A DNA stretch of 64,000 nucleotides, from positions 7,721-71,720 of the IMG/VR virus record IMGVR_UViG_3300022602_000076; one strand, written 5' to 3'. Origin of the DNA: a virus. The notes under the pieces were generated by a model. The model ran no database searches and was not told where the DNA came from. It worked only from the letters and a program-made list of their open reading frames with translations. This document shows, in pieces, positions 1 through 62,251 of the stretch; within the stretch, counting starts at the first letter, position 1; every line of letters begins with the position of its first letter. Position numbers and translations under genes: made by a program.

Positions 1-65
1 TGCATCAACAGATCACACACATCTGTTTCATTGAAAATCATTTCGCCGAATTTATTTTGTATCAT
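1..65 (-). CDS. 5' fragment of a gene running off the window edge (MIQNKFGEMIFNETDVCDLLM...)
   Basis: ATG at 65 overlaps the end of the 52..651 ORF; frame open to the window edge. Confidence 0.55.
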   Translation of the reverse strand, partial: MIQNKFGEMIFNETDVCDLLM

Positions 66-651
66 CGTTTTTACTGAAATCTGCAAATACTATGGTGTTG
101 CCAAACTCGGACTTTTCGTCAGTCCAGGCCAAATCTAAATCTCTCCATGACTTGGCAGTGTTCATTGAAACTACCTTGTCCTTATTGACCAGATTAATGT
201 CATAATGATCAAACTTGGGCGAAGTCCACCAGTCTGGCTTTTCAATTTCTGGCTTTTCAATTTCACTGTGTAGGTAAGTTACACCATCACTGAACGCACT
301 GCTCAATTCAGTTTCTACTACAACCATGCGTCCTTCCATGATTGAGTTTAACTTGTAGTATAACATAATTCCAATCACTTGATCAAGCGGCTCATCGTTC
401 AGTGTGGTAACAGTAAGCCCGGCATTGATATAGTTGTCGATGACTTCTGTGTGCTCACTGTTGATAAAAATACTGCTGTCAAGTACATCATGAATAAAAT
501 AATTGATTCGTTCAAATGCTATGTTATGACTATCAGATTCTTGACTAGTGGTCATCATCCATAGTTTTACCTCATAGCTGTTCATTTGCATGGAACCATT
601 GTAGTATACGCCGGCAGTAAAATGTAGTTTGGTTGAAATTCTTGCGTTCAT
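52..651 (-). CDS. Hypothetical phage protein
   Basis: 199-aa ORF, ATGA-coupled to upstream ORF. Confidence 0.75.
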   Translation of the reverse strand: MNARISTKLHFTAGVYYNGSMQMNSYEVKLWMMTTSQESDSHNIAFERINYFIHDVLDSSIFINSEHTEVIDNYINAGLTVTTLNDEPLDQVIGIMLYYKLNSIMEGRMVVVETELSSAFSDGVTYLHSEIEKPEIEKPDWWTSPKFDHYDINLVNKDKVVSMNTAKSWRDLDLAWTDEKSEFGNTIVFADFSKNDDTK

Positions 652-20513: not shown

Positions 20514-21065
20514 TTATATGCCAAATAATTTGAAGTGATCTTCTAGTGTGAAGTTGTTAGGATCAGATATTTCCTGTCCGTTGTAGGTTTTAAATTGTGA
20601 ATTTAAAACACCGTAGCGTCTGAAGAAATACCATGCATCCGGCGAACTTGATCCGTGCCCACTTTCTCTCAGCACAATATCATCTTCTTTCTTGATCAAA
20701 CAAGTTGGTGTATTAAGAGCTTGCCGGATAGTTAATCTATTTTCAATCAACATAGCAACAATAGTGTTAACTGGCATAACATGTTCAAAGATACAGTTCT
20801 TTTCATCAACTCCAATTTGTCTGTAATGTCCGCCAATTTTACCTTCAATGGCGTATCCATGATATCTGCGAATGTGATGTTCCATGGCATCACGAATCAG
20901 CCTGGCTTCTTGATCCTCATCAGACTTGACTAGGTACATGTTCAACAATCTTTCCAACTCATTGGTAGTAAAATTGTCAGTTTGTTGATAACTATGGTCA
21001 TTGCGTTGAACTCGTTTATAGGCTTTTTTAGCAAAAGTTTTGACAAGTATTTTTAAACTAGACAT
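20514..21065 (-). CDS. Hypothetical protein with EHxxP motif
   Basis: CIFEHVMP resembles the His-Me/HNH-like EHIxP motif. Confidence 0.55.
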   Translation of the reverse strand: MSSLKILVKTFAKKAYKRVQRNDHSYQQTDNFTTNELERLLNMYLVKSDEDQEARLIRDAMEHHIRRYHGYAIEGKIGGHYRQIGVDEKNCIFEHVMPVNTIVAMLIENRLTIRQALNTPTCLIKKEDDIVLRESGHGSSSPDAWYFFRRYGVLNSQFKTYNGQEISDPNNFTLEDHFKLFGI

Positions 21066-21067
21066 TG

Positions 21068-21403
21068 TTATACAATCACTCGTTCTTTTTGGGATTCTGC
21101 ATTGCTGTAAAAACATTCACCATTTTTACGAATATGATTTACCATATATTGAGGATCGTTGGCAAATGCGTCAACTAGATCTTCTTTGGTTATTTCTCTG
21201 TCAACTGAGAAAAAATAAATTTCATAGTTACGCTGAGGATTTGTTTGTGCTCGCAACCTAAGATGAAATGGATTGGCCAGTGCATGTCTTGGAGATTCTT
21301 TGCCTTGCAGTTTTTCCCACATCACTCGCTGTTCATCTGCAGTGACATCGTCGATGTACTCGAGACCATTGCAGTCCCACATGGCTATAAATGTATGACT
21401 CAT
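21068..21403 (-). CDS. Hypothetical protein
   Basis: 111-aa ORF, GAGG RBS. Confidence 0.7.
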   Translation of the reverse strand: MSHTFIAMWDCNGLEYIDDVTADEQRVMWEKLQGKESPRHALANPFHLRLRAQTNPQRNYEIYFFSVDREITKEDLVDAFANDPQYMVNHIRKNGECFYSNAESQKERVIV

Positions 21404-21618
21404 TTTTTACCTCGATTGAATTCTGCAGTCAAATAATACTTTGTGAGCTTGGCAGCAATCATTCCAGGCAAGTCGTAGTATGGACTTTCGAGCAAGAAGT
21501 TAACATTGATCTGGCCCCATGTGCCTGTTTTATAAAATGTGCTCACTGCTTGGCGATGTTCTTTGTTGGTTGGATCAAAAATAACAGTAGGTCTATGAAT
21601 AAGATTTAAACAGCTCAT
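21400..21618 (-). CDS. Hypothetical protein
   Basis: 72-aa ORF downstream of a promoter. Confidence 0.65.
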   Translation of the reverse strand: MSCLNLIHRPTVIFDPTNKEHRQAVSTFYKTGTWGQINVNFLLESPYYDLPGMIAAKLTKYYLTAEFNRGKK

Positions 21619-21647
21619 AAGAATTCCAAAGTTTAATTTATAAAATT

Positions 21648-21676
21648 ATTTTAACACAAAACTCAATCAAAGTCAA
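21648..21676 (-). promoter_or_regulatory. sigma70-type promoter
   Basis: TTGACT-N17-TAAAAT. Confidence 0.7.
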
Positions 21677-21909
21677 GCCCAACGCATTACAAATGCCAAA
21701 TAGTCTTTTTCAGAATCAAAATAAAAGATATATCGTCCGGGATTTCGGTCCGAACTGGTTTCAATCAATTGCCAGCGCCAATCGGCGGTCATTCCGGATT
21801 TGCACCAATCTAATACATGTTCGATCACACCAAATGGTTTGGATATTTCGTGAGCATAAGTAAAACTCACTGCATCTCGCAAATACTCAAGTGGTGGATC
21901 TAGGAGCAT
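21673..21909 (-). CDS. Hypothetical protein
   Basis: C-terminal FYFDSEKDYLAFVMRW motif of a common large-phage small protein type. Confidence 0.7.
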   Translation of the reverse strand: MLLDPPLEYLRDAVSFTYAHEISKPFGVIEHVLDWCKSGMTADWRWQLIETSSDRNPGRYIFYFDSEKDYLAFVMRWA

Positions 21910-22355
21910 TTATACCCTTCCAGTGCCGTTTCCAGCAACGGCATAGGTAGTTGCCACTGCCAGTAACTTTCAACTATGTCATCAACATACCATGGATGTG
22001 GTTTACCAACACGGGGATCAGTCATTTCATAAAAGAAAAATTTCTTGCCATCTTGGTACCATTCTTGCTTGACATAGTACACCGGGTGACCTTCAAATCG
22101 ATCCAGACTGTATTCACATAGATTGGTAATCTTCCAAAGTACCCCGGCCACTTCTGCACCTTTGTTATACTCAATGTTTGCATGAGTATAAAATTTCAAT
22201 TGCCAGTCTTTTAAAACAAAAGGACCAATAGGCACTGCATCAGGACAACGATACTTCATGTTGTCTTCGTGCATGTTGGCACCATAAGCAAAATACAGCT
22301 TAGTAGATGTAGGTTTTTTGTATGTAAGCATCTGCTCTTTGATAATCATTGTCAT
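21900..22355 (-). CDS. Gamma-glutamylcyclotransferase (AIG2-like)
   Basis: LYFAYGANM...VAGVLW...LDRFEG. Confidence 0.85.
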   Translation of the reverse strand: MTMIIKEQMLTYKKPTSTKLYFAYGANMHEDNMKYRCPDAVPIGPFVLKDWQLKFYTHANIEYNKGAEVAGVLWKITNLCEYSLDRFEGHPVYYVKQEWYQDGKKFFFYEMTDPRVGKPHPWYVDDIVESYWQWQLPMPLLETALEGYKCS

Positions 22356-22557
22356 AAAATAAAATGCTGTCGGTTATTCCAAAGTGATTGCAAAAACTTT
22401 GAGAATATCGTTGGCCATATAGTGCGTCCCAGGTGAATTCTTTTTTCCACTGCTCATATTCAGCTCTAGACACTTTTTGATAACTTGTTTCTTTGCTATT
22501 CATCAATTGAGCTAGGTGCGAAGCAAACACCTGAGCACTTCGTTGTTGTTCAGTCAT
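22300..22557 (-). CDS. Hypothetical protein
   Basis: Start MTEQQ coupled to upstream stop. Confidence 0.6.
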   Translation of the reverse strand: MTEQQRSAQVFASHLAQLMNSKETSYQKVSRAEYEQWKKEFTWDALYGQRYSQSFCNHFGITDSILFYDNDYQRADAYIQKTYIY

Positions 22558-23020
22558 TGTGTATTTCCATCCATGTGTGATCGCCCATGTACTGTACCTG
22601 ACATACATAGTCATAGTTCACTGGTTTGCCAGTGTTCCAATCTTCAGGGCCGTGTTGGGTCAATATCATTTTTTGCTTTCGTGTGTCCATTGCTAACCAA
22701 TAACATTGTCCCATGACAATTTGAAATTCATATTCGGCTGCATATACCATATCAGTGACATCTAGCCTGCGTTTGATATCTTCTGCTTGTCGTTGTAACA
22801 CTGAGACCAATTCCATGATTCTATCATATTCTTGCTGAGCATAGATCCTGGCATGATTGATCATTATGTCTTTTTGTTTGGCCACAGGAACCAGGTCAAA
22901 CTTGGCACCACCAGCTTCGGTGGCATAGGGCATGACATTGCGATTGAAAAAGCTCACCAGGGTGTTGCCTGTGGCAATGTCAAAACTGTCGCGACCTTTG
23001 GCTGAGTTATTTTCTTCCAT
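22550..23020 (-). CDS. DUF2452-like protein
   Basis: Coiled coil followed by IVMGQCYWL...GPEDW...YMGDHTW. Confidence 0.6.
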   Translation of the reverse strand: MEENNSAKGRDSFDIATGNTLVSFFNRNVMPYATEAGGAKFDLVPVAKQKDIMINHARIYAQQEYDRIMELVSVLQRQAEDIKRRLDVTDMVYAAEYEFQIVMGQCYWLAMDTRKQKMILTQHGPEDWNTGKPVNYDYVCQVQYMGDHTWMEIHND

Positions 23021-23694
23021 TAATCCCAGAGGTTTTGATAATACTTGCCAAACAATACAAAACCATTTTGAATGCGTTTTTGAACTTTTTCCATGCCTTC
23101 GTAGTCACATGTATAAGTGTGCTCAGGGCCATCTACTAGTTTGTACATGGTTGCTTTACCGTTTTCATCCCAGGCACAGGCCACACTTCGATGGTCGGCC
23201 ACTCCTGAACTAAATGCATCCTGCCAAGAGTCATCTACTTTACATTCAAATGCAAAGATCATTTCCGCCAACACCCAGTCCCAACGCAGGAAGTGGTTGG
23301 CATCTGTGTCCCACTCGTTTTCTTTTGGTGGTGCTGATGTACTACGCAATTCTTCTGGTACATCCTCATCATCCACATAGGGAGCACCGTGTTTGCTGTC
23401 TTTCAATTGTCGCAACATGGGCAGTATGATATCGGCCAAGGTATGATCCATGCTCCAGGTATCGTAACGGTCAATTCGCACATAATTGACTCGAGGATGT
23501 ACAAAATCTAAGAATGTCTGCCAAGCAACGCAAAAGGGTGATAAACGGTCGACCCACTTATCGTATTTGTGCCCGGGTTTATCTTCGTGATTGTAAAAAA
23601 CGCTATCATCTTTCTCCCAAAAGCAAACTGCTTTTAAGATAGTGTAGGGGCTAACCCAATGATTTCTGTAACCTGATTTGTAAATTTTCATCAA
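23020..23694 (-). CDS. Hypothetical phage protein
   Basis: IDRYDTWSMDHTLADIILPML...FGKYYQNLWD pattern seen in large myoviruses. Confidence 0.75.
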   Translation of the reverse strand: MMKIYKSGYRNHWVSPYTILKAVCFWEKDDSVFYNHEDKPGHKYDKWVDRLSPFCVAWQTFLDFVHPRVNYVRIDRYDTWSMDHTLADIILPMLRQLKDSKHGAPYVDDEDVPEELRSTSAPPKENEWDTDANHFLRWDWVLAEMIFAFECKVDDSWQDAFSSGVADHRSVACAWDENGKATMYKLVDGPEHTYTCDYEGMEKVQKRIQNGFVLFGKYYQNLWD

Positions 23695-23960
23695 TCACTC
23701 CATTTTAAAATAATCCAAAAATACTTGGGGTCATTTTCATCTATGTCAAACCAAAGTTGACGATCTCGTTTTTCTGCAGTGATTCCTTTGTGATTGAAAA
23801 AATCCACTGCAAAATCAATCAGTTTATCTCGGTGTTCGGGATTTGTTATCGTTTCTTTTAGAGAATTGGCAAGATTGGCCCTGGTATGAAATTCTTCCAA
23901 GTAGGTTTCTATAATATAGTTATTGAACCAACTTGGGCAGTCTTTGTAACTGAATTGCAT
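23691..23960 (-). CDS. Hypothetical protein
   Basis: 89-aa ORF; AGGAGG RBS. Confidence 0.65.
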   Translation of the reverse strand: MQFSYKDCPSWFNNYIIETYLEEFHTRANLANSLKETITNPEHRDKLIDFAVDFFNHKGITAEKRDRQLWFDIDENDPKYFWIILKWSD

Positions 23961-24769
23961 TATTGACCTCCTGGAAGATCAATATACATAAGCTGGAAGC
24001 GGTTGGCCCTTGCTTCATAGCCGTAATAGCCTCTTGGGTTGCACACAACTCTTGTAGTGCCAATTGTGTAGTCAAAGTCGTCATGCATGTGCCCATGGGT
24101 CCAAAGCACAATCTCAGGATAGTCTAAGATAAGTTCGCTGAGGTCGGATGCAAAACATCCGTTCATGATTGTGTCACGCTGGTATTGTTCGGCGATGCTT
24201 TGAAAACTTGGAGCATGATGTCCGACTACCACAACATTGTGAGCATGATTGTTGTTGACCCTACGAGTATCCAACACCAACTTTATGTAGTTGACCATGT
24301 CGTTGTGCTCTTTTAAAGAGTGTATGGGCAAAAACTTCCAACTGTTGTGATCATTGGTATTTTTAACGCCGCGGTAATCATTCATCATTGTTTCAGCAGC
24401 ATGCAAGGTAACAGGATCACGCCTGTTGAAATCTGTCCATAATGTACCGCCGATGAATGTAAAGTTGCCAATCTGTAGTGTACTGCAATCTAATAAATGT
24501 ATGTTGCGGATATTCAAAGAATTCAGCATATTCAAGATGAGTTCACCACTCTGGGCATAGTCGCCATTGTAGTGTTCATGGTTGCCCATGATATAAATGG
24601 TTTCTGGAAATTCCCAACTCACACGCTGAAAAAAGTCTTTGACCTCCGGTGTGAGCCTTTTTGCCACACAAATATCTCCGCCAAGGATCAACACATCTGC
24701 TGACTGATCATTTTTGAAGAAGATGTCACCAAATTCAAGATGTAGATCCGAGGTTACTGCTATTTTCAT
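23960..24769 (-). CDS. Calcineurin-like metallophosphoesterase
   Basis: SDLH, GGD, GNHE, HHAP, HGHMH, NPRGY. Confidence 0.9.
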   Translation of the reverse strand: MKIAVTSDLHLEFGDIFFKNDQSADVLILGGDICVAKRLTPEVKDFFQRVSWEFPETIYIMGNHEHYNGDYAQSGELILNMLNSLNIRNIHLLDCSTLQIGNFTFIGGTLWTDFNRRDPVTLHAAETMMNDYRGVKNTNDHNSWKFLPIHSLKEHNDMVNYIKLVLDTRRVNNNHAHNVVVVGHHAPSFQSIAEQYQRDTIMNGCFASDLSELILDYPEIVLWTHGHMHDDFDYTIGTTRVVCNPRGYYGYEARANRFQLMYIDLPGGQ

Positions 24770-25094
24770 TTTTTATTTGATTTAATTGTTCTGCTAGTGT
24801 CGTTAGCACTGACTCTTCGCCTGCAGACAAGTATGCGTCGGCACCAGGAAATCTTGCTCTAAACGAATCTCTAATTTCTTCAAGATTGCGTCCTTGACAC
24901 AAAAACTGATTGGTTTCATTATTGTAGCAGTAATACATATCTTTGTCAACCTCTACCCGCATGCCAATTTCTTGTTTTTCGGTTTGCTCAGCTAACTCTG
25001 CTTCTCGTAGAGTTTTTCTTATTGTTTGAAAAACAAACATGCCAGAAAACAATATTCCAGCAACAAAACCAATGATCAAATCAAAAAAATTCAT
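24735..25094 (-). CDS. Membrane-anchored hypothetical protein
   Basis: N-terminal TM helix; AAGGA RBS. Confidence 0.7.
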   Translation of the reverse strand: MNFFDLIIGFVAGILFSGMFVFQTIRKTLREAELAEQTEKQEIGMRVEVDKDMYYCYNNETNQFLCQGRNLEEIRDSFRARFPGADAYLSAGEESVLTTLAEQLNQIKNENSSNLGSTS

Positions 25095-25172
25095 TTTGTT
25101 CCTTTGTTAAATTTTTCTTACCCATGTGCGGCTCCATGGATTATTGTGTATATAGTCCGTTATGTAGTGGCA

Positions 25173-25547
25173 TCATGTTCGGCACAGTTCCAATAAGGTG
25201 CAGTAATGTTGATAGGCTTTTTCCACAGCAGGATTGTTTAGTCTAACTACGCGATCCCGTTCATATCTAGCCATTAATTTCTTATCGGTTTCATGTTTAT
25301 CTATTTCAGATTCTGCGTATTTGATATAATTGATAATAGTTTCTAATCTATCTTTAGGCATGAGTATGTCCACACAAGGCACTTCTTCTGAGTGTGCTTG
25401 TTGATATAACATTTCGTCAGATATAGTGACATTCCAGGCGTTTATCTGCGGCAACGGCGGTCGTATTAGTCTACGCAATGTGCGATTGCTAAGTCTAACC
25501 TGCATTTCCATTTGATTGTAAAAGTGTTGATTAGGATCGCTCATCAT
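25173..25547 (-). CDS. Hypothetical protein
   Basis: 124-aa ORF, ATGA-coupled. Confidence 0.7.
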   Translation of the reverse strand: MMSDPNQHFYNQMEMQVRLSNRTLRRLIRPPLPQINAWNVTISDEMLYQQAHSEEVPCVDILMPKDRLETIINYIKYAESEIDKHETDKKLMARYERDRVVRLNNPAVEKAYQHYCTLLELCRT

Positions 25548-25777
25548 TCAATTCCGAAATGTGCTCGAATATATTTGCTCACATAAGAATCCATGTCTGC
25601 TCTTTCTACTTCATCAGCAATCGCACAACATTCTCTTACAATCAACTCGGCGAACTTTGCGTAATGCATTTCTAAATGTTCTGAATACATTACCACATGG
25701 TCTCGTTCTACCGTTTCAAGGTCATGTTTCACAAAAGCCCATGCTTCTTGTCTAATTTGTCGAATTCGTTCGTTCAT
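25544..25777 (-). CDS. MNERI/FAELIVREC/HFG paralog family, copy 1
   Basis: MNERIRQ...KFAELIVREC...IRAHFGIE. Confidence 0.8.
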   Translation of the reverse strand: MNERIRQIRQEAWAFVKHDLETVERDHVVMYSEHLEMHYAKFAELIVRECCAIADEVERADMDSYVSKYIRAHFGIE

Positions 25778-25788
25778 TCTTTTAATCC

Positions 25789-26007
25789 TTACATATAATA
25801 AGGTTTGGGACTACGATACACTTCAACAGTATCTAACATATTCTTTGCTTGGGTTATAGCAAGTTCTTTTGCTCTTTCATCAGGAAGATGCTCAGACACT
25901 TTATAACATTCCGCAAATTTCCAAAATAGAAAATTCTTATATTGTACATTATATTCTTTCAAGTGTGCGTCATACACAACTCGTGTTTGTAAAAATAGGT
26001 TTTTCAT
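25789..26007 (-). CDS. Hypothetical protein within the paralog array
   Basis: 72-aa ORF coupled to copy 2 stop. Confidence 0.6.
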   Translation of the reverse strand: MKNLFLQTRVVYDAHLKEYNVQYKNFLFWKFAECYKVSEHLPDERAKELAITQAKNMLDTVEVYRSPKPYYM

Positions 26008-26198
26008 TGTTCAACTCCGAAATGTTCTCTAATATCATCACCCATAGTCCCGCCACCATCTTTCCGTTCACGCAAGATGTTATCTACTCGGCCGGCACAT
26101 TCCCGGATCAGCAACTCGGCCAACTGTTGAGCACGCTGAGCCAACTCCGGAGCCGCATAGCCTGCTGCCAACATCAATTTTCTTAGGTTTTCATTCAT
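26004..26198 (-). CDS. MNERI/FAELIVREC/HFG paralog family, copy 2
   Basis: MNENLRKL...LAELLIREC...IREHFGVEQ. Confidence 0.8.
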   Translation of the reverse strand: MNENLRKLMLAAGYAAPELAQRAQQLAELLIRECAGRVDNILRERKDGGGTMGDDIREHFGVEQ

Positions 26199-26449
26199 TC
26201 CGCAACTCCGAAATGTTTCTTTATATGAGTTACTGCTTCCAAAATACCATCATTGAATCCAAGTTTATTTCGTACAGCAACATCGTCAGCAAGACCTGCT
26301 CCACGAGCACAATCAATACATTCCTGAACAATCAACTTGGCGAACTTTTCCTTTAGTATTGATAACTGAGAATGGGTCAGTGTAGTCCAAGTTTCTGGTA
26401 TAGTTTGATCCATAGCCTGTCCAAACAGTTTATTGATTCGTTCGTTCAT
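26195..26449 (-). CDS. MNERI/FAELIVREC/HFG paralog family, copy 3
   Basis: MNERINKL...KFAKLIVQEC...IKKHFGVAE. Confidence 0.8.
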   Translation of the reverse strand: MNERINKLFGQAMDQTIPETWTTLTHSQLSILKEKFAKLIVQECIDCARGAGLADDVAVRNKLGFNDGILEAVTHIKKHFGVAE

Positions 26450-26562
26450 CTTCCATCCTTAGCATCATTGTATCCGATTAAATAACCCATCACTAACGCA
26501 AACATCATACCCGCAATGGCAATGGCTGTGCCAATCATTGGTCCCAAATTAAATTCATTCAT
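26446..26562 (-). CDS. Small membrane protein
   Basis: MNEFNLGPMIGTAIAIAG...; one TM helix. Confidence 0.55.
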   Translation of the reverse strand: MNEFNLGPMIGTAIAIAGMMFALVMGYLIGYNDAKDGR

Positions 26563-26731
26563 GCCGGTCCTTTTCCCAAGGGGTAAATTCGTATCTGTAA
26601 ACGGGTAACAGGCCAAACAACCATGTACCAACCTTTACTTGTTTTAATTCTCTATGCTCAACTTCGGGCCGGTATTGGTCTGGGGTATTTCTAATTCTCG
26701 TGAAGTCATCTTGGAAATTTGTTAGGTTCAT
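26555..26731 (-). CDS. Small hypothetical protein, 58 aa (not in ORF track)
   Basis: MNLTNFQDDF...; ATGA-coupled to copy 4 stop. Confidence 0.55.
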   Translation of the reverse strand: MNLTNFQDDFTRIRNTPDQYRPEVEHRELKQVKVGTWLFGLLPVYRYEFTPWEKDRHE

Positions 26732-26976
26732 TCTTCAACTCCGAAATGTTCTCTAATTCCACTAATCATCTTTTCACAAGCACGGTCATACCCAATAACA
26801 TAATGTGTATCAGTTGCTGGTTCCCCTCTAACCTCAAAGGCAATGTCTAAACAGTCTCTCACAATCAACTCGGCAAACTTTTGATTGTAAGCTTCAATCC
26901 ATTCATTCACAGTGAGTCTCCCGACAGGAATGTTGAGTTTTGCTTGATTAGCAAGTTCTTGAATTTTATTGCTCAT
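26728..26976 (-). CDS. MNERI/FAELIVREC/HFG paralog family, copy 4
   Basis: MSNKIQELANQA...KFAELIVRDC...IREHFGVEE. Confidence 0.8.
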   Translation of the reverse strand: MSNKIQELANQAKLNIPVGRLTVNEWIEAYNQKFAELIVRDCLDIAFEVRGEPATDTHYVIGYDRACEKMISGIREHFGVEE

Positions 26977-27137
26977 ATTGTATTTTCCAACAAACGATTG
27001 ACATACAACAGTACTTCAGCTAGATTCCAGGAAAATATTAAGCCATCAAAAATATAAGTCCAACGACGCCCTGTGTAATCCCAGGTCACTAACCAGTACC
27101 AAGTCAACAAAAATGCAACGACATTTAGATAGATCAT
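26973..27137 (-). CDS. Small membrane protein, 54 aa (not in ORF track)
   Basis: MIYLNVVAFLLTWYWLV...; ATGA overlaps at both ends. Confidence 0.6.
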   Translation of the reverse strand: MIYLNVVAFLLTWYWLVTWDYTGRRWTYIFDGLIFSWNLAEVLLYVNRLLENTI

Positions 27138-27595
27138 TGTGATGCTTTCACTGCTCGTTGTGACAAATAAGCTTCGTTTTCAACCCAACCTTTGGTGGTT
27201 AAAAATCCCCACTCGCGTTGTTTTGGACCTGGCATAAACAAGGTCCAAGTTTCCACATCAGGGTCTAATTCTATACGATGATAACCAGTAGCAGGAGAAT
27301 ACCTAAAATGACCAGGCCCTCGCCAATGCCCAACTTCTCCACACTTTCTTCCTGTTTCATCGAACTGAGGAATCCACTCATAATAACCACCTTTTAAAAT
27401 CAGTGTGCAGTAGGGCCAAGGATGGTCATGCACATCATCTGGGTCGCCCTTGAGGAACCTGTGCAAAAACACATTGAACGGAAATCGTTCGCGATCTTTT
27501 AAGAATAGATAGTAGCGTTCCAGATAGGGTTCATTATTTACCCTGTCCATTATAACCCTATATCTGCCCAGTTTGGTAAAGAGATTTTTTATCAT
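27134..27595 (-). CDS. Cupin-like phage protein (leaderless start)
   Basis: LHRF...HDHPW...GGYYE...HRIEL...WGF. Confidence 0.75.
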   Translation of the reverse strand: MIKNLFTKLGRYRVIMDRVNNEPYLERYYLFLKDRERFPFNVFLHRFLKGDPDDVHDHPWPYCTLILKGGYYEWIPQFDETGRKCGEVGHWRGPGHFRYSPATGYHRIELDPDVETWTLFMPGPKQREWGFLTTKGWVENEAYLSQRAVKASQ

Positions 27596-27601
27596 GTGTT
27601 T

Positions 27602-27630
27602 ATTATAGCAAATCCAGGATTTTTGGTCAA
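27602..27630 (-). promoter_or_regulatory. sigma70-type early promoter
   Basis: TTGACCAAAAATCCTGGATTTGCTATAAT. Confidence 0.85.
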
Positions 27631-27631
27631 G

Positions 27632-27659
27632 AAAAAACCCTACAAACTGTAGGGTTTTT
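27632..27659. terminator. Intrinsic terminator
   Basis: AAAAAACCCTACA-AAC-TGTAGGGTTTTT. Confidence 0.85.
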
Positions 27660-27684
27660 GCAACATCTTAGTCTAAGCTAAGAA

Positions 27685-27957
27685 TTATACCAATCCCATG
27701 GCCAAGGCCTTGTAACCAGCAGCTACAACCTTGCGGCTTGGCTTGCCAATTGCGTACTCAGTGACATGAACGCCATTACCGGCCTTACGGCTGTTTGCGT
27801 AAACTGCAAAACCAGCTGAACGGATTCTGCTGGCTTCGGCACTGATGTTCTTGATACCAAAACGCTTCTCAGCCTGAGCTGGAGTGATCTTTTCACCATT
27901 GTGCAAGGCATTGAACAATTTGTAGGTTTTTGTTTTTGGGCTAAAACGAGTAATCAT
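27685..27957 (-). CDS. Small winged helix-turn-helix DNA-binding protein
   Basis: GEKITPAQAEKRFGIKNISAEASRIRSAGFAVY. Confidence 0.7.
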   Translation of the reverse strand: MITRFSPKTKTYKLFNALHNGEKITPAQAEKRFGIKNISAEASRIRSAGFAVYANSRKAGNGVHVTEYAIGKPSRKVVAAGYKALAMGLV

Positions 27958-28099
27958 AATTTAAGTTTCCTTTTCTAAAGTTTAAAAATAACTGTTTACT
28001 AACAGTATGACTCTAGTTTAACACGAGTGTAACACAGAACGCAACAGTTTTAGAACACAGTTTAACCATAAATAACATAAAAGGCTAACAAGGATCCCA

Positions 28100-31000
28100 A
28101 TGGCAATAACCTATTTTACTACAACCGCGGTACAGACCTACGCTGCCAACAATGCGGTGACCTTAACTAATCTTTCAAACATATTTCCAGGAATGTCCAT
28201 AGTATTTTCTGGAAATGTTTTTGGAAACATCGCCAGCAACACTCAATATTATGTGAGCAATGTGGTTAGTCAATCCAGTATCACTATCAGTAATAGCGTC
28301 GGCGGATTCAACACTATTTTAGCAAACGGCACAGGCAATCTAACAGCTACTTTGAGCACTGGCGGACAAGCTCAGATCAACACAGGTGCAATACCCAATG
28401 ACGGCACCGGCGATCCTTTGCGAACTGCCTTCACAGAAACCAACCTAAATTTTGACCAAATCTATGCTGCTGGTCCAGTTGGTTCCAATGTTCAAATCAC
28501 AAACAACACAATTTTAACCACAAATACCAATGGTAATTTGATTCTAAGTCCCAATGGCATTGGCAATGTTATTTCCAATGCACATGTTATTCCTGATCAA
28601 TCTCGTATTAGAAACCTAGGAGCACCCAACCTACTGTGGCTGGGTGTCTATGCTCAAACTGCCAACATCGCAAGCAATGTAGCTATCGGCGGTGACATGC
28701 TGATTTCCGGCAATTTACAAGTTAATGGCAATTTGACCTACATTGATTCCAATGTGGTTGAAATCAAAGATAAAAATATCACTTTGGCATATGGATCACC
28801 CAACGCACAGGTTGCTGATGGTGGTGGTATCACCATTGCTGGTGCCAACGCAGAAATGTACTACAACTATGCTGGCAACAATTGGACATTTAACCTGCCA
28901 ATTGCCACTGCCAACATTGTTTTCCCAGACGGCAGTGTACTAGATACTGCCAACACTGTGCACATTGGCAATACAGCCCTGAACAAAGGCGATGGCAATC
29001 TATGGTGGAACAGCAATGATGGCCGCGGCTATGTAAAATACAACAATCAATGGCTGGAGTTCAGCCCACCTGTTATCCCCAATCCTGCCGTCTATCTCGG
29101 CAACTTGACCATAGATGGTGATAATAATAGCACATTATATTTCCCACCAGATGGCAACATTGTGTTTGGTGATGGTACTATTCAAGACACTGCATTTACT
29201 GGCTCGGCCAATGTGGACTTTACAAACATTGCCAGCAATATTATTCCAGCAACCAACAATACCTACAGTTTGGGCAATGCTACCAATCAATGGGCCAGTG
29301 TTTATGTTGGTGCCAATACTCTATATCTCAACAATGTGCCAGTGGGTGTCACAGGCAACACTCTAACAGTAAACGGAGCCAATGTGGTCACTGCAGCCAA
29401 CGGCACTGTGACTGGAAACAATATCAGTGTAACAGGCAATGTCACTGCCAATGCAATTACACTAAAGAACACGGATGATTTTGCTCAGATTGTGTTCAGC
29501 AATGATGGTGGTTCTACCAACAACGGTCAGATCAAAGTGGATGGTGGCACTAACATGGTTGTCAGTGCCAACAACAATTTTTATGTCAAGCGAGTTGGTC
29601 AAGACAGAATAGCCATAACTGATACCACCGCTGATTTCATGGCCGCAACCAATGTGCGTATACAAAGTAACAAAACTGGTAACACCAATACTTGGACATT
29701 TGATAGTTCAGGTAATTTATCTTTACCAGGAGCAGTTAATTATCAAGTTTCAGGCTTAGGCAATAGCGGACATTTTGACATCAACAGTTGGTATCCTGTA
29801 AACATCAGTACAGGTGATAGCGTCGACGAGGCTATATCAACTTGGAATTTTGGTTACAACGGCACATTAACCTTGCCTGGCAATATTGTGATGGGTGGCG
29901 GCAACTCTATAGTACTAGATTCCAGCACCGGCAATGCTTATATTGCTCAAACCATGGGCTTGCAAATTGCAGGTGAAGGTGGAATAAGCCTTATAGTCAA
30001 CGACGGCGAAGGTGATTTCAACACTGTTGGGATTGATGTCTACGGCAATATCCAAACTCCTGGCAGTATCACTGCCACTAGTATTTCTGCCAGTGGTAAT
30101 GTAACTGGTGGCAATGTGCTGGCTGGTGGATTGTATACCACTGCCATATCAGCCACGGCCATGGTCTATGTTGACAGCACTGGCAAACTCACTGGCGATG
30201 CTGCTGGATTATCCACTGATGGCAACGGTAACTTGTCTGCTTACGGCACTGTGACAGCCGCAGGACTGAATACATCATTGTTGAATCTTGGCAACACTGT
30301 GGCCGGCCCTGCAGCTGGTGGTGCCAGCGACAAGATAACCATTTATGACTTTTATAATCCTTCACAATTCAACTATGCCATTGGTGCAGAGTCCAGTAAT
30401 CTGTGGTTTGGAGTGGATCAAGTAGAATCTGGTGTGGGATTCAACTTCTATGGTGGCAATACCTTGGCAGCTCGCATTGATTCAACTGGTAATGTGACTG
30501 GCACAAACTTTGTGGGTAATGTGATTGGCAGCAACGGTAATTCTGTTGGTATAAACAGTTTTTATGCCAACGGATCTTCTGCAGTTAGTTTTGCTATTGG
30601 AGCCAATGGCAATGTAAATATCCAAACTTACCAGGGTGCTGGATTAGCGGGTGTATGGACATTTGACAACACAGGTAATTTGAACTTGCCAGCCAATGGT
30701 GACATCAACATGACCAGCGCCAGTTCTTTATTGAATGTTGGTGGAACTATAACCAGTTACGGCAATACCAATAGCACAGCATTTGCGGTGGTGGGCAACG
30801 GAGCAGCCAGTAATGTTGCACTGGGATTCTTCCCCACAGGCAATACACCAGCTGAAATGGCTATTCGTGACTACTCAACTGCCAATAGCACAATGTATTT
30901 TGATACTACCATTGGCAGTGCCAATACCGGAGGATCATTCCAATTCCGTGGTAGTAGTTCATATACTCCTTATGCTAACATCTCCCAATACGGTGTTCAA

Positions 31001-42279: not shown

Positions 42280-43343
42280 CCAAACAATAGTCCTTGATTT
42301 TTCAGGGTTTCTATTGCAGTATCCACACTATTTTGCCAGTTGAATTGGGTTCTAATAACCTTACTGTTTTTAAGGGCATTTTCAGTTAACATCTCAGTGT
42401 TGTCTTTACACAACACCATGGCTTCTGCTAGATTATCTACATCAGGCATAGCCCATTGTCCCCAATTGTTGTCAGGTTCTGGGTAGTGTGATTGATATAT
42501 CGGACATTGAATTGGTCCCAATTGGTAATCCACAGGAACAACACTATTGGTAATGTGTTGCAGATATTCTGTGTGTCCACTGTAATTGGTTGTGATGATT
42601 GGTAGTCCAGATGCCGCTGCCTCTATTATGGGTAGTCCCCAAGCTTCACCTTTGGTAGGAGCCAACAATGCATCGCACACAGTGTATAAATGTTGCATAT
42701 AATCAACGGCTCCAACAACCACATGTATGTTGGTCAATCCAAGGTCTGAAACTTTTTGCTCAAACTCAGCCATTGAATCATCTTCACTGACTAGGTGTGT
42801 TTTGAATACTAGTTCCACTTCAGGACTATTGTTCCAAGCCCGAGCAAACGCATCGAGTACTTCAGACCAACTTTTTCTTTGTTCATATTTGCCCACAAAC
42901 AAAAATCTATATGGTCGGTGTTGTTTGGGTCTGGACCAGATATTGTATGCTGAAGGATCTACTCCTTCAGGTACAACATGAATTTTGTCAGGCGAGATTC
43001 CGTTGGCAACTAGAACTCTATTGCCCCACGCACTGGGTACCCATACACTGTCAGCATGTTCTAGGTTGGGCATGATTTTGCTAGGGATTTTGTCGCTTTC
43101 AAACACAATCCATTGTATGTTATGCCCACGAAACAGTTCATGTATGTTGCCAGATACAAAACTTATGTTGACATCATCAGGTGCACTAGTTTGTATAGCA
43201 TGTTCGACTATCTGCTGATTTGTAAAATCAACCTCGTCTACCAAATGCCCTATCCCTATGTATTGGCGGATAGCATCGCAAAATGCACTGTAATGAATGC
43301 CAACACCTAGGTTATTGCGTTGACCAATTAATCTAATTCTCAT
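42276..43343 (-). CDS. GT4-family glycosyltransferase
   Basis: [11 protein letters not shown]; [22 protein letters not shown]. Confidence 0.88.
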
Positions 43344-43936
43344 GCTGTACGGTTGGTAATAATTTCATCAACAAGCCCAAAATCCAGAGCTTCTTGAGCA
43401 CTCATGTAATTATCTCGTTCCATAGCTGAATAAAATTCTTCAAATGTTTTGCCCTTTGAATTATGATTGACATAAATTTGTGTGAGATTCTTTTTCATTG
43501 CAAGAATCTCTTCAACTTGAATTAACATGTCTGTGGCTTGTCCACGGGCACCACCTGAAGGCTGATGAATCATGTGACGAGCGTTTGGTAGAATTTTGCG
43601 TTTGCCAGCAGCCCCAGCAGTGGCGAGTAAACTACCCATGCTGCAAGCCTGTCCCATAACGATGGTTTGTACATCTGGCTTGACGAACTGCATAGTGTCG
43701 TAAATTGCCATGCCAGCGGTAACAACACCGCCAGGGCTATTAATATAAAAGAGAATGTCTGCATCTGGATTTTCACTTTCTAAAAATAACATTTGTGCTA
43801 CAATTAAACTAGCAGAATGCTCGTTTACATCTGTGTCTAAAATAACAATACGATCTTTGAGTAATCTACTGTAAATATCGTAACTTCGTTCGCCTTTTGA
43901 AGTTTGTTCTACCACAATTGGTACTAAGTTTGGCAT
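43340..43936 (-). CDS. clpP: ATP-dependent Clp protease proteolytic subunit
   Basis: [16 protein letters not shown]; YINSPGG; QACSMG; MIHQPSGG. Confidence 0.97.
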
Positions 43937-43987
43937 AGGGTCTCCTGGTTGAAAGCATAAGTATAACATATTCCTTGGAAAAATACA

Positions 43988-45547: not shown

Positions 45548-46123
45548 TTACTTCTTGAGATCACTCACATAATCGCAAATACCCAGTTCTAGTGCTTCTT
45601 TAGAACTCAGCCAAACATCTTGTGGCGGTAGCAAATACTGTCGTATTTTTTCATCATCAAGCCCAGTTGAGTCACGGTACAAATCCAACATACGCTGAAA
45701 TGTCAGCTCGTATTCTTTTACTTGAGCAAACAATTCATGTGCTTTGCCATCACTGCCCCAACTGTACTGATGACTTAGTATGCTGGTGTTGGGAGTAAGA
45801 ACTCTGCGACCTTTGGCTCCGGCAATGAATATACACAATCCAGCACTGGCAATTTGTCCTAGCCCTATTGTTTTGACTGGTATGGTGCTGGCGTTCATTA
45901 CATCAATCAATGCAAATGCACTTTGAAGATCGCCGCCTTCACTGCAGACCATTAACAATAATTCTTTTTTCTTTTTCTTGACCACATGATTTTCAACCAA
46001 GATCCATTCAATTATGGGTTTTATGGATTCGTTGTCTACTGAATCCATAAACACATACATACCTGTATCATTCAATAATTGCGAATGATCGTTGTTATTG
46101 ATATCGGAATCTTGTACGGCCAT
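45548..46123 (-). CDS. Second, divergent ClpP-like peptidase
   Basis: CSEGGD, GLGQIASAG, ILSHQYS, WLSSKEALELGICD. Confidence 0.85.
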   Translation of the reverse strand: MAVQDSDINNNDHSQLLNDTGMYVFMDSVDNESIKPIIEWILVENHVVKKKKKELLLMVCSEGGDLQSAFALIDVMNASTIPVKTIGLGQIASAGLCIFIAGAKGRRVLTPNTSILSHQYSWGSDGKAHELFAQVKEYELTFQRMLDLYRDSTGLDDEKIRQYLLPPQDVWLSSKEALELGICDYVSDLKK

Positions 46124-59130: not shown

Positions 59131-59919
59131 ATGACTTTCACATTTGATTTAATTTCTGACCTTCATATCGAAACCTGGGGTGACTTTGATTGGACCGGGC
59201 AAGCAACCAGTCCTTTTTGTGTAATCGCAGGAGATATTGCTCGAGACTCGAGAACAGTGCTAAACACACTAAAACATCTAAGTACTTGTTATCAAGCTGT
59301 ATTTTATATCGACGGCAATGATGAACATAGATATCAACTAGACAACATAGATCACAGCATCAACAGTTTGGTCGAAGCAGTCAAAGGCATTGAAAATGTT
59401 GTTTACATGCAAGACAATGTTGTAGTAATCAATGGTGTTGCTATCCTGGCCACAAATGGTTGGTGGACCTTTGATCTGGATCTTAGCATTGATGCAGACC
59501 AAACTGTGCAATGGTTCAAAGAACAATACAAAACATCAAATTCTGTTGCAGCATCAATCACAGACATTGCCTATCACGATGCCGCATATCTAATGAACAG
59601 TGTGAGAAAATTACAAACTCACAAAGATGTAAAAGCCATTGTTATTGTGACTCATACTGTGCCATCTGCATGGATAATCGAACACGATATAGAACTAACA
59701 GGATCATACAGATTCAACACCACTGGCAATCCACATCTAGAGCTGGCCTTGGACGAAGACACAGAAAACAAAATTCGTGCCTGGTGCTTTGGTCATTACC
59801 ATCAACCAGTGGACAGATTTCACAATGGCATTCGCTATGTCAACAACTGCAGAGGCAGAAATGGCACCGATTGGTGCCAAACTGCATATTATCCCAAACG
59901 GATATCTATTGAATATTAA
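59131..59919 (+). CDS. Calcineurin-like metallophosphoesterase
   Basis: SDLH, AGD, GNDEH, THTVP, FGHYH, NNCRG. Confidence 0.88.
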   Translation: MTFTFDLISDLHIETWGDFDWTGQATSPFCVIAGDIARDSRTVLNTLKHLSTCYQAVFYIDGNDEHRYQLDNIDHSINSLVEAVKGIENVVYMQDNVVVINGVAILATNGWWTFDLDLSIDADQTVQWFKEQYKTSNSVAASITDIAYHDAAYLMNSVRKLQTHKDVKAIVIVTHTVPSAWIIEHDIELTGSYRFNTTGNPHLELALDEDTENKIRAWCFGHYHQPVDRFHNGIRYVNNCRGRNGTDWCQTAYYPKRISIEY

Positions 59920-60287: not shown

Positions 60288-60728
60288 TTAGTTTGTATAG
60301 GTAATAGCAATGCTCTTTGGCTTCATTGCTTCTGGCACACGCTGTTCCAACAAAACAGTCAATACACCATCCTTGGCAGTGGCATCCAAGACTTCTACAT
60401 ATTCTCCCAAGGGCCAGCTACGCACAAATTTGCGAGCACTGATTCCACGATAAAAATATTCATGTCCTTCGGGTAGATCTGTTTCTTTCTTTTCGCCTAC
60501 GATACTAATTGTACCATCTTTAACAGTGATATCAATTTCCCCTTGTGTAAATCCGGCCACAGCCAATTGTAGTTCAAAGGTGTTTTCACCAGTTTTTACA
60601 ATGTTGTATGGGGGATAGTTGGTACTAGCCGCAGAATCAATTTGGTTGACGATCCTATCAAATAAGCGATCAACTCCGATTGAAGTACGGTAGAAGGGGG
60701 CGAGATCAAAAGCTGTGATTTTAGTCAT
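60288..60728 (-). CDS. Small heat shock protein (Hsp20/IbpA family)
   Basis: IGVDRLFD; NYPPYNIVK; LAVAGF; YRGISARKF; DGVL; PEAMKP. Confidence 0.95.
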   Translation of the reverse strand: MTKITAFDLAPFYRTSIGVDRLFDRIVNQIDSAASTNYPPYNIVKTGENTFELQLAVAGFTQGEIDITVKDGTISIVGEKKETDLPEGHEYFYRGISARKFVRSWPLGEYVEVLDATAKDGVLTVLLEQRVPEAMKPKSIAITYTN

Positions 60729-60827: not shown

Positions 60828-61049
60828 TTAGAACAACTTCTTGGGCAAGGCCTGAGATGCCACTTGTTTTTGCCAGCGATTTTTGGCTGCAGATTTACGG
60901 CGTTTTCTTGCAGTTGTGGGTTTTTCAAAAAATTCGCGATCTCTGAGATCATTGAGCAATCCAGATTCAACAATTTTTTTCTTGAATTTGCGTAGAGCCT
61001 TGTCTACATTACCGTCTTTAACAATTACTGTGCGACCGTATAATTTCAT
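60828..61049 (-). CDS. rpsU: 30S ribosomal protein bS21
   Basis: NVDKALRKFKKK...REFFEKPTTARKRRK. Confidence 0.93.
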   Translation of the reverse strand: MKLYGRTVIVKDGNVDKALRKFKKKIVESGLLNDLRDREFFEKPTTARKRRKSAAKNRWQKQVASQALPKKLF

Positions 61050-62251
61050 AGGTTTTCTTGTGCTAGTGTCATAGGAGTATTTACCTGCTCTTTTCCTATA
61101 ACTACCTTTAGAATGTTTTGTTTGCGATATCTTGGCAAATCAAACATATGCGGCAACAACACACGCTCTAGTTCTGTGTGCAGGCCTCTAGCACCTGTTT
61201 TTGTGTGTAATGTGCGTTCAGCTATTAGATCCAAGCTTTCTGCATCAAATTCCAAGTTAACACCATCTTGATCAAACAACCATTGGTATTGTCCAACAAA
61301 ATTGTTTTTTATTTCCGTCAATATGTTTATCAATTGCGATTTTGTCAATGCTTGTAAGCTCACATAACTTGAAAATCTGCCCACAAACTCTGGGATCATT
61401 CCGTAGCGTACTAGATCATCTGGAGTGATTGATTCATTTTCAACAATGCTGGTACTGCTGAATTTAGCACCAAAACCCATGGCAGTACCTTGTATGCGAT
61501 TTTTTACAATATTCTCTAAGCCAACAAACGCACCGCCTGCAATGAACAAAATGTTGCTGGTGTCAATTTCAACCATTTCTCCAGTGGACATTTTTCTATT
61601 GCCACTGACTGGGATTTTGCACTTGGTGCCTTCGACCAGTTTCAACAATGCTTGTTGTACACCTTCGCCAGAAACATCTCTGCTGACTGTGGCACTTTCG
61701 CCCTTGCGAGCAATCTTGTCAATTTCATCCAAGAATATGATACCACGCTGACATTGTTCTACATTTCCATTGGCCGCCAAAAATAATCGTGCGACAAGAC
61801 TTTCAACATCATCACCAACATAACCTGCTTCGGTCAGTGTTGTGGCATCTGCTACCACAAACGGCACATCCAAGTACTTGGCTACTGTGCGAGCCATTAG
61901 AGTTTTGCCAGTGCCAGTTGGGCCTATCATCAAGATATTGGCTTTTTGTATTTCTTTGGCAGGATCTGTGTTGTTTATTCTTTTGTAGTGATTGGCAATG
62001 GCCACACTCAGCACTATCTTGGCTGCGTCTTGACCAATCACATGAGAATTCAAAAAGTCTCTAATTTCTCTAGGATCTGGCAGCACTGTGTTTTCAGACT
62101 TGGGCACAGGATCTTTTTTTCTGTCCTTGAGCAGTGATCCACATAGGTCCACACAAGCATCGCAGATTGCAGCATCGTGTCCCACAATGAGTTTGATAAC
62201 TTGATCTTTGTGCTTGGAACAAAAACTGCAATGACTGATGGTGTTGCTCAT
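61046..62251 (-). CDS. clpX: ATP-dependent Clp protease ATPase ClpX
   Basis: C4 zinc finger; GPTGTGKT; TEAGYVG; DEIDK; RDVSGEGVQQALLK; TGARGL. Confidence 0.97.
   Translation of the reverse strand: MSNTISHCSFCSKHKDQVIKLIVGHDAAICDACVDLCGSLLKDRKKDPVPKSENTVLPDPREIRDFLNSHVIGQDAAKIVLSVAIANHYKRINNTDPAKEIQKANILMIGPTGTGKTLMARTVAKYLDVPFVVADATTLTEAGYVGDDVESLVARLFLAANGNVEQCQRGIIFLDEIDKIARKGESATVSRDVSGEGVQQALLKLVEGTKCKIPVSGNRKMSTGEMVEIDTSNILFIAGGAFVGLENIVKNRIQGTAMGFGAKFSSTSIVENESITPDDLVRYGMIPEFVGRFSSYVSLQALTKSQLINILTEIKNNFVGQYQWLFDQDGVNLEFDAESLDLIAERTLHTKTGARGLHTELERVLLPHMFDLPRYRKQNILKVVIGKEQVNTPMTLAQENL

Follow-up and report, generated by a model that had tools for sequence, protein, structure and literature searches.

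Four short open reading frames (ORFs) on the minus strand of a phage genome fragment resemble one another in three short blocks and differ completely between them, and they raise the question of how a gene comes to be built from constant and interchangeable parts. The ORFs occupy positions 25544-26976 of a 64-kb window (the whole stretch of DNA analysed here), which is part of IMGVR_UViG_3300022602_000076, a 71.7-kb IMG/VR fragment judged 21% complete; PHROG matches in the window include a tail fibre, a head maturation protease and an endolysin. The sequencing runs in which the stretch is present are metagenomes of freshwater and lakes, and none of the listed runs is an RNA dataset. We find that the four ORFs very probably belong to a very large, uncatalogued family of freshwater phages whose members are mosaics, with halves of genes, whole genes and unrelated passenger genes exchanged at three blocks that are conserved as DNA.

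The four copies, which we label A, B, C and D, follow a single gene plan in which an N block, a first variable segment (V1), an M block, a second variable segment (V2) and a C block succeed one another:

Copy D, 26728..26976, minus strand, 82 amino acids: N block 26938-26976; V1 26884-26937; M block 26851-26883; V2 26758-26850; C block 26731-26757; stop codon 26728-26730
Copy C, 26195..26449, minus strand, 84 amino acids: N block 26411-26449; V1 26351-26410; M block 26318-26350; V2 26225-26317; C block 26198-26224
Copy B, 26004..26198, minus strand, 64 amino acids, GC-rich: N block 26160-26198; V1 26130-26159; M block 26097-26129; V2 26034-26096; C block 26007-26033
Copy A, 25544..25777, minus strand, 77 amino acids: N block 25739-25777; V1 25661-25738; M block 25628-25660; V2 25571-25627; C block 25547-25570

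Aligned to copy A, the copies are 34-43% identical, with V1 and V2 varying in length and sequence and with nine invariant columns that all fall inside the three blocks; this bears out an earlier reading made from the letters alone (the sequence-only reading), which had described three constant blocks separated by two dissimilar segments in four ORFs of 64-84 amino acids. The near-invariant residues are N2, E3, I5, L8 and A12 in the N block, F A E L I.. E C in the M block and H F G V in the C block; copy D begins MSNK instead of MNER. That reading had also held the DNA of the blocks to be conserved. Indeed, exact matches to CAACTCCGAAATGTT lie at 26012, 26203 and 26736 and one with two mismatches lies at 25549; 0.18 matches are expected, and four were reached in none of 100 shuffles. 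A 20-nt pattern of the middle block is exact in three copies, at 25638, 26328 and 26861 (0.03 expected), the GC-richer M block of copy B being unmatched. A repeat search recovered the same block families, whose DNA repeats nowhere else in the window. The profile built from the four copies matches all of them end to end (E 1e-24 to 2e-36), and these are the only copies that a profile search finds in the whole record. Copy B has a guanine-plus-cytosine (GC) content of 0.49 (V1 0.63, V2 0.54) against 0.42 for the window and is the most GC-deviant of 275 family genes; since the GC content of family-bearing loci spans 0.36 to 0.53, this copy may have originated in a phage of higher GC content.

The variable halves of the family assort independently. 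Relatives were drawn from the best hits to the four-copy profile (P0001-P0120) and from 80 related loci picked via copy A (P numbers denote profile-search hits, L numbers related loci or contigs). From 541 non-identical members, the 484 complete ones were cut at the block borders of the profile, with the window's own loci L001-L004 excluded, and single-linkage clustering at 50% sorted their segments into 280 V1 types and 250 V2 types. The V2 type of copy D is present in 104 members and is joined there to 50 different V1 types; the V1 type of copy C is present in 39 members, joined to 26 V2 types. Because P0001-P0120 are the top hits of the four window copies, this set is biased, and assortment was also assessed in a loci-only set of 228 members. 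In that set, 36 of 37 recurrent V1 types occur with at least two V2 types and 37 of 38 recurrent V2 types with at least two V1 types. Among its 25,878 pairs, compared at 70% or more, both halves are shared by 4, V1 only by 54 and V2 only by 59, and there are 16 complete four-gamete squares. Different types of variable segment have a mean identity of 15-16% and cannot be aligned.

At the level of DNA, stretches of near-identity between different phages start and stop at the blocks, so that V1 halves, V2 halves, whole genes and unrelated passengers occur in many combinations. Copy D and locus L010, for example, are unrelated upstream of the M block; from that block on, an identity of approximately 99% extends across V2 and the stop codon and enters the next gene. 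The V1 half of copy C is 93% identical to L007 and its V2 half 90% identical to L006, each of the two high-scoring segment pairs (HSPs) ending in the M block; the V2 half of copy B is 88% identical to L077, in a match that ends at 26124; and the V2 half of copy A is approximately 91% identical to L006 and L007 while its V1 half is 85% identical to L005, the HSPs overlapping solely in the M block. Within 25500-27000 of the window, every HSP longer than 100 nt and of at least 85% identity ends in or beside a block. We then compared 76 loci (after removal of the duplicates L027, L029, L080 and L083) and window positions 21001-31000 all against all, which gave 167 HSPs of at least 100 nt and at least 85% identity and, once 5 ends at locus edges were removed, 329 HSP ends. 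The blocks, which make up 4.6% of the bases, contain 182 of the 329 ends, and 264 lie no more than 6 nt from a block (6.2% of the bases), a 13-fold enrichment. Contigs from four lake metagenome runs have loose ends at 25657-25660, 26350, 26727-26728 and 26882, all of them block edges, and the contigs of X3 and X5 leave 26927-27013 uncovered.

The clearest single case, the replacement of one cassette on an otherwise constant backbone, comes from L182, one metagenome contig fetched with an exact 31-nt pattern from a neighbouring gene. L182 is colinear with window positions 23160-29195 and, leaving aside copy A and short joints, matches 23160-28099 at 98.8-100% identity; the main difference is the V1 cassette of copy A, whose junctions fall in the N and M blocks. 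Identities to L182, part by part, are as follows:

Left flank, 23160-25172: 98.8%
124-amino-acid gene: 99.2%
Copy A, N block: 79.5%
Copy A, V1: 55.7%
Copy A, M block: 90.9%
Copy A, V2: 93.0%
72-amino-acid passenger, copies B and C, the N block, V1, M block and V2 of copy D, 54-amino-acid gene and 153-amino-acid gene: 100%
38-amino-acid and 58-amino-acid passengers: 97.1% and 98.8%
Copy D, C block: 92.6%

Specifically, copy A and its counterpart are identical over the first approximately 23 nt of the N block, unrelated from there until the M block, and then approximately 95% identical. The V1 that L182 carries in this place has 100% protein identity to cassettes in L007 and P0102, which are paired there with other V2 types. 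Together with the HSP ends and the step between copy D and L010, the junctions in L182 uphold the proposal of the sequence-only reading that the constant blocks serve as crossover points that shuffle the variable segments, and the chimaeric breakpoints for which it said one should look are present at the blocks in the DNA of relatives. Beside the array, the 5′ part of a 1107-amino-acid tail-fibre-like gene (28100-29195, against L182:120-1215) is only 78% identical, the adjoining 5 kb being 98-100% identical; this is a second mosaic spot, perhaps related to host range.

The family to which the copies belong is unnamed, confined to phages and freshwater. With the four-copy profile we found 3902 representatives of clusters at 50% identity (E<=1e-3), and in a 90% collection 7574 of 8000 scored candidates pass the profile, none of them with a Pfam domain; there are at least 379 relatives in IMG/VR. 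The consensus blocks, from an alignment of 129 members, are MNERIKELAxQA, EKFAELIVREC and IKxHFGVEE, with near-invariant residues from residue 2 to the last few. Searches of NCBIfam, PHROGs and Pfam returned no PHROG or NCBIfam model for the four copies, and a PHROG scan of the 129 members gave only 4 single weak hits (E 0.003-0.01). Identity with Pfam DivIVA (PF05103) was rejected: copy B scores 18.7 bits (E 0.0017), below the 28-bit gathering cut-off, and the other three copies are without a Pfam match. Among the cultured phages of INPHARED, neither blastn with 25100-27700 nor tblastn with copy D gave a match; with P0253 as query and a cut-off of E<=1, tblastn yielded 4 weak matches, of which the strongest (E 0.4) fell in an uncultured record. 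Prokaryotes, represented by one genome for each of 185,579 species, contributed only 17 loci, all on contigs of metagenome-assembled genomes (MAGs) of freshwater taxa and most of them short, which we take for mis-binned phage DNA. One partial family match (residues 32-82, 43%) lies in L095 (NZ_JBBAKG010000001.1), a 183-kb Haliscomenobacter MAG contig, and could be a prophage or a clue to the host. Our literature searches found no paper on the family.

Copies typically occur in arrays. Over the 80 loci, 18 have 1 copy, 26 have 2-3, 27 have 4-6 and 9 have 7-12, so that 62 of 80 hold 2-12; with 1-12 copies per locus, number and order are not fixed, as the idea of shuffling had led one to expect. 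All 289 family hits in these loci lie on one strand. Of 209 neighbouring pairs, 64 abut and 98 are spaced by 121-600 nt, which leaves room for passenger genes. The arrays are not recent local duplications: among 376 within-locus pairs, 3 have a V1 type in common, 3 a V2 type and none both.

The blocks are conserved as DNA at silent positions too. In 277 members for which DNA was available, single codons prevail at many block sites relative to a background of long ORFs: AAC for N2 (0.91 against 0.44) and CGA for R4 (0.89 against 0.12) in the N block, and, further on, AAG for K34 (0.89 against 0.39), GCC for A36 (0.84 against 0.24), GAG for E37 (0.81 against 0.27), TTG for L38 (0.81 against 0.27), GGA for G78 (0.94 against 0.22) and GTT for V79 (0.89 against 0.35). 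Set against the V segments of their own genes, the blocks show the contrast again. When loci are compared at sites that encode one and the same residue, codon identity is 0.69 in the N block, 0.71 in the M block and 0.77 in the C block, as opposed to 0.495 in the neighbouring 153-amino-acid gene (81 homologues), so that synonymous variation is suppressed in the blocks. With copy number and order that vary and V segments that do not align, none of the three findings that would have spoken against the sequence-only reading is seen. In the C block the freeze can be attributed to translation signals, since GGAG lies in the last 25 nt of 212 of 268 family genes and the next start codon is at -4 in 189 of 268; the N block may be held constant by its role in starting translation. 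Neither a translation signal nor RNA structure accounts for the frozen codons of the M block: no RNA structure stands out in the M block with 20 nt on each side (z -0.70 to 0.09, four copies). The frozen codons may reflect selection on the DNA or constant homogenisation by exchange.

The genes interleaved with the copies travel as well. The parts of the neighbourhood concerned are:

27602..27630, minus strand: sigma-70-like promoter match, TTGACC-17-TATAAT, 11/12, with TG, upstream of the 153-amino-acid gene; a consensus match only
26973..27137, minus strand: hydrophobic mini-gene, 54 amino acids, its stop overlapping the start of copy D (ATGA)
26555-26731, minus strand: passenger mini-gene, 58 amino acids, between copies D and C
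26446-26562, minus strand: membrane-like hydrophobic ORF, 38 amino acids, between copies D and C, in an overlapping stop/start chain with the 58-amino-acid ORF
25789..26007, minus strand: passenger gene, 72 amino acids, starting by ATGA overlap on the stop of copy B
25173..25547, minus strand: 124-amino-acid gene, its start overlapping the stop of copy A

By coordinates, each of the four copies ends in an ATGA overlap that starts the next gene, as had been noted from the letters; the genes so started are the 124-amino-acid gene (after A), the 72-amino-acid ORF (B), copy B (C) and the 58-amino-acid ORF (D). The small ORFs between copies, of 72, 58 and 38 amino acids, are indeed unrelated to them, and their carriage as passengers, another part of the sequence-only reading, is seen in L076, L010 and L007, where they lie between different family copies. 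The 72-amino-acid passenger is 94% identical to L076:965-1220, in an HSP that spans the C block of copy B to the N block of copy A. The 58- and 38-amino-acid pair recurs at 91-94% identity in L010 and L007, with HSPs that end in blocks, spanning the N block of copy C to the C block or the M block of copy D. Likewise, the 124-amino-acid gene is 80.5% identical to one in L062, beside a family array in another phage, and the HSP ends within the C block of copy A, at 25554. The family libraries (PHROGs, Pfam and NCBIfam) held no usable match for the passengers.

The C block carries a GGAG ribosome site approximately 7 nt ahead of the ATGA stop/start overlap, and with this joint the following gene, whatever it is, is translationally coupled. 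The promoter match at 27602..27630 likely marks the start of an operon that contains the array, judging from its fit to the consensus; within 25544-26976 we found no terminator-like site on the minus strand and only weak, 9/12 promoter-like matches. Tiny hydrophobic ORFs (54, 38 and 37 amino acids) are chained into arrays, the one of 37, at L010:3121-3234, opening with the first four N-block residues. At L076:2072-2346 a family copy is broken between V1 and the M block, and at L076:887-979 a C-block remnant that ends GVEE directly precedes the 72-amino-acid passenger; the broken copy and the remnant look like debris of past exchanges.

The family proteins are 65-90 residues long, those of the window 64-84, and stand alone. 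AlphaFold (AF2) predicts three helices for copy D (residues 3-14, 23-50 and 58-78; mean predicted local distance difference test, pLDDT, 92.5) and the same three for copy B (3-11, 17-44 and 52-60; pLDDT 88.9). Judged from helix lengths, the two termini and the M block would come together halfway along the long central helix, V1 and V2 making up the two ends. Foldseek against the PDB gave no match at E<=1e-3; among 48,161 chains compared with VIA-align no Z reached 8, the highest being 7.9, which is the noise level for helical models; and matches in BFVD and the ESM Atlas are only to uncharacterised proteins of uncultured phages. A predicted complex of two copy D chains scored 0.28, against a mark of 0.42. 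The family is acidic, with a median isoelectric point of 4.87, below 5.5 in 86% of members and above 8 in none. An invariant cysteine ends the M block, and 109 of 231 V2 types have an extra one, which favours positions +4, +1 and +3 after the invariant cysteine and positions 4, 7 and 11 residues before the C block; cysteine frequency is 0.027 in V2 and 0.009 in V1, and the V2 segments of window copies A, C and D are among those with extra cysteines. These residues would form one face of helix 3 near the invariant histidine, and the pattern may mark a metal or redox site. As to function, a repertoire of host-directed binders is our guess.

We propose that the exchange proceeds by ordinary homologous recombination, between co-infecting phages and between paralogues, through tracts of identity of 27-35 nt in the blocks. 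To go by the predicted secondary structure, the three helices would be joined at a constant junction made of the blocks, and V1 and V2 would each form a variable hairpin tip of its own, an arrangement that would explain why the halves are freely swappable. It is also conceivable, as a more tentative and rather doubtful extension, that selection on the DNA itself preserves the blocks as linkers and that the family is a community-wide combinatorial library of at least 280 V1 and at least 250 V2 cassettes, a source for freshwater phages of new two-tipped binders and new passengers for host take-over or counter-defence that evolves more by reassortment than by mutation.

Several observations weigh against exchange at the blocks. 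Outside the unpadded blocks lie 147 of the 329 HSP ends (47 in V segments and 100 elsewhere), and 65 remain outside after padding by 6 nt; moreover, an HSP over a shared cassette extends into the flanking blocks merely through block conservation. P0001-P0120 over-represent cassettes common to the window, and the loci were chosen through copy A. Translation signals by themselves could account for the freeze of the N and C blocks, and frozen codons are no proof of selection for recombination. L182, the closest relative, keeps gene order, copy number and passengers, and turnover is therefore not fast. All of the evidence comes from comparison of short-read metagenome assemblies and none from an observed recombination event. 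Finally, a RecA search of the 71.7-kb fragment gave no match, which says little for a record approximately 21% complete.

A different account of function, compatible with shuffling, is that the N block serves to target the capsid, as the leader of the internal proteins of T-even phages does, and that the family consists of counter-defence proteins that are packaged and injected. Family members are small and acidic, with conservation from residue 1 on, and the internal-protein loci of T-even phages are described, in passages of PMC2839356, as highly plastic. This account leaves the equally conserved M and C blocks unexplained, places among packaged proteins an array that follows a sigma-70-like promoter in a run of small genes and not among head genes, and presumes a likeness of the leader to that of T4; we regard it as unlikely.

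Conservation of the blocks beyond coding needs, and an M block explained neither by translation signals nor by RNA structure (z -0.70 to 0.09), could also point to a dedicated system in which the blocks are recognition sites of a specific enzyme (a site-specific recombinase, a homing nuclease or similar), general homologous recombination playing no part. In the loci inspected, however, no integrase, recombinase or nuclease gene accompanies the arrays, the junctions are scattered through the blocks and take no fixed position, and recombination in phages, as parts of PMC2839356 describe it, needs only patches of less than 50 bp, all of which makes such a system distinctly improbable.

Assembly is a further possible source of mosaics, in that short-read assemblers may fuse different phages at 30-nt repeats. 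Logan contigs of the runs that hold the stretch do break at the blocks, which are thus repeats in assembly graphs. The blocks (24-39 nt) are shorter than reads, though; one and the same chimaeric protein can be present on many contigs (9-16 in several cases), and A, B and C each occur unchanged on 2; and the identities to L010 and L182 extend over several blocks, for 460 and 6084 nt. We consider an artefact very unlikely. Still less can be said for an ordinary paralogous family in which loops diverged quickly under selection around a fixed core without exchange of segments: the predicted fold, a conserved core with variable connecting parts, would suit it, whereas the occurrence of one V2 with 50 V1 types and one V1 with 26 V2 types, the four-gamete squares, the jump from unrelated to approximately 99% identical sequence at a block (copy D against L010) and the single cassette replaced in the 99-100% identical strain L182 render it exceedingly improbable. 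A diversity-generating retroelement or other targeted hypermutation of V1 and V2, suggested by variable segments between constant ones, can be dismissed almost entirely, given types that vary in length and recur unchanged in other phages, no template copy of V1 or V2 within 24500-28200 and no reverse transcriptase (RVT_1) match in the 71.7-kb record, itself a fragment.

With exchange at the blocks as the preferred reading, some features of the surroundings remain to be described. The 153-amino-acid gene (27134-27595) bears the PHROG label 'cysteine dioxygenase' and has at least 586 relatives in IMG/VR at 66-77% identity, many of them on contigs of 260-400 kb, which fits a jumbo-phage background. 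It does not anchor the array stably: of 68 loci with this gene and at least 3 kb downstream, 61 lack a family copy inside those 3 kb. Elsewhere, the window holds two paralogues of a ClpP-like 'head maturation protease', an ATPase with matches to ATP-dependent proteases and clamp loaders and an Hsp20 gene (43340-43969, 45548-46123, 61046-62251 and 60288-60728), as well as two metallophosphoesterase paralogues (23960-24769 and 59131-59919).

The exchange of modules at conserved linkers is an old idea in phage evolution, but few clear natural examples exist, and these involve either intergenic elements or one adhesin gene; here the linkers lie inside a protein-coding gene and the exchange unit goes down to approximately 20 codons. 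In the modular evolution of Botstein and Campbell, as summarised in part of PMC2839356, modules are likewise exchanged through flanking conserved linkers that position them in a new genome, but the proposal was made for gene blocks of lambdoid phages, whereas the module here can be a small fraction of a gene. The promoter-early stem-loop (PeSL) cassettes of T4-type phages, to judge from passages of Arbiol et al. (2010, PMC2839356), are similar in that short conserved DNA flanks small non-essential ORFs in plastic regions and offers 'linker' homology for insertion, deletion and replacement between phages. PeSLs are, however, intergenic, combining a promoter and a terminator, and isolate their cassettes transcriptionally, whereas the blocks are coding elements, one of them mid-gene, across which half-genes are swapped, and neighbouring genes are coupled translationally. 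The intergenic promoter and stem-loop terminator that border a PeSL cassette are absent from 25544-26976, where the ATGA overlaps leave no intergenic space for such an element.

The gp38 tail-fibre adhesins of T-even phages, in which glycine-rich motifs (GRM) alternate with hypervariable segments (HVS), are also alike in part. According to sections of Trojet et al. (2011, PMC3157838), their constant motifs form a structural core with variable segments of restricted palette between, and exchanges in or near the conserved motifs give chimaeras. That last feature is present here too, as a likeness of mechanism only. Yet gp38 is one structural gene per genome, concerned with receptor binding, and the present family has 1-12 copies per locus, is helical and is accompanied by unrelated passengers; its blocks are helical with one conserved glycine only, in place of glycine-rich motifs, and we rejected a gp38-type adhesin. 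The internal-protein (IP) loci of T-even phages, in the portions of PMC3012670 and PMC2839356 that concern them, hold many small, diverse proteins with a short constant N-terminal sequence in plastic, clustered loci shuffled between phages; IPs share the N-terminal leader only and have unrelated folds, in contrast to the three blocks and one fold shared here.

With 3902 clusters at 50% identity, the family ranks with the larger ones in public data that no catalogue lists, and it points to thousands of small acidic proteins on one scaffold with two variable tips. It offers a natural system for measuring how often and how widely lake phages recombine, how little homology suffices and where frozen synonymous sites come from, and its C-block joint, with ribosome site, stop and start in approximately 20 nt, is a compact natural device that expresses whatever gene lands behind it. 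In bacteria, the minicassettes of gonococcal pilE/pilS are variable cassettes that recombination at short stretches of conserved sequence links to a constant part. The same is described, in the relevant part of PMC3482391, for polymorphic toxin loci. These bacterial systems work within one genome, between donor and expression sites, and have known functions, whereas the exchange described here runs between phage genomes and each copy is a complete gene. Taken together, these comparisons suggest that the family belongs to none of the PeSL, gp38 and IP systems and that its mechanism fits linker-mediated modular exchange.

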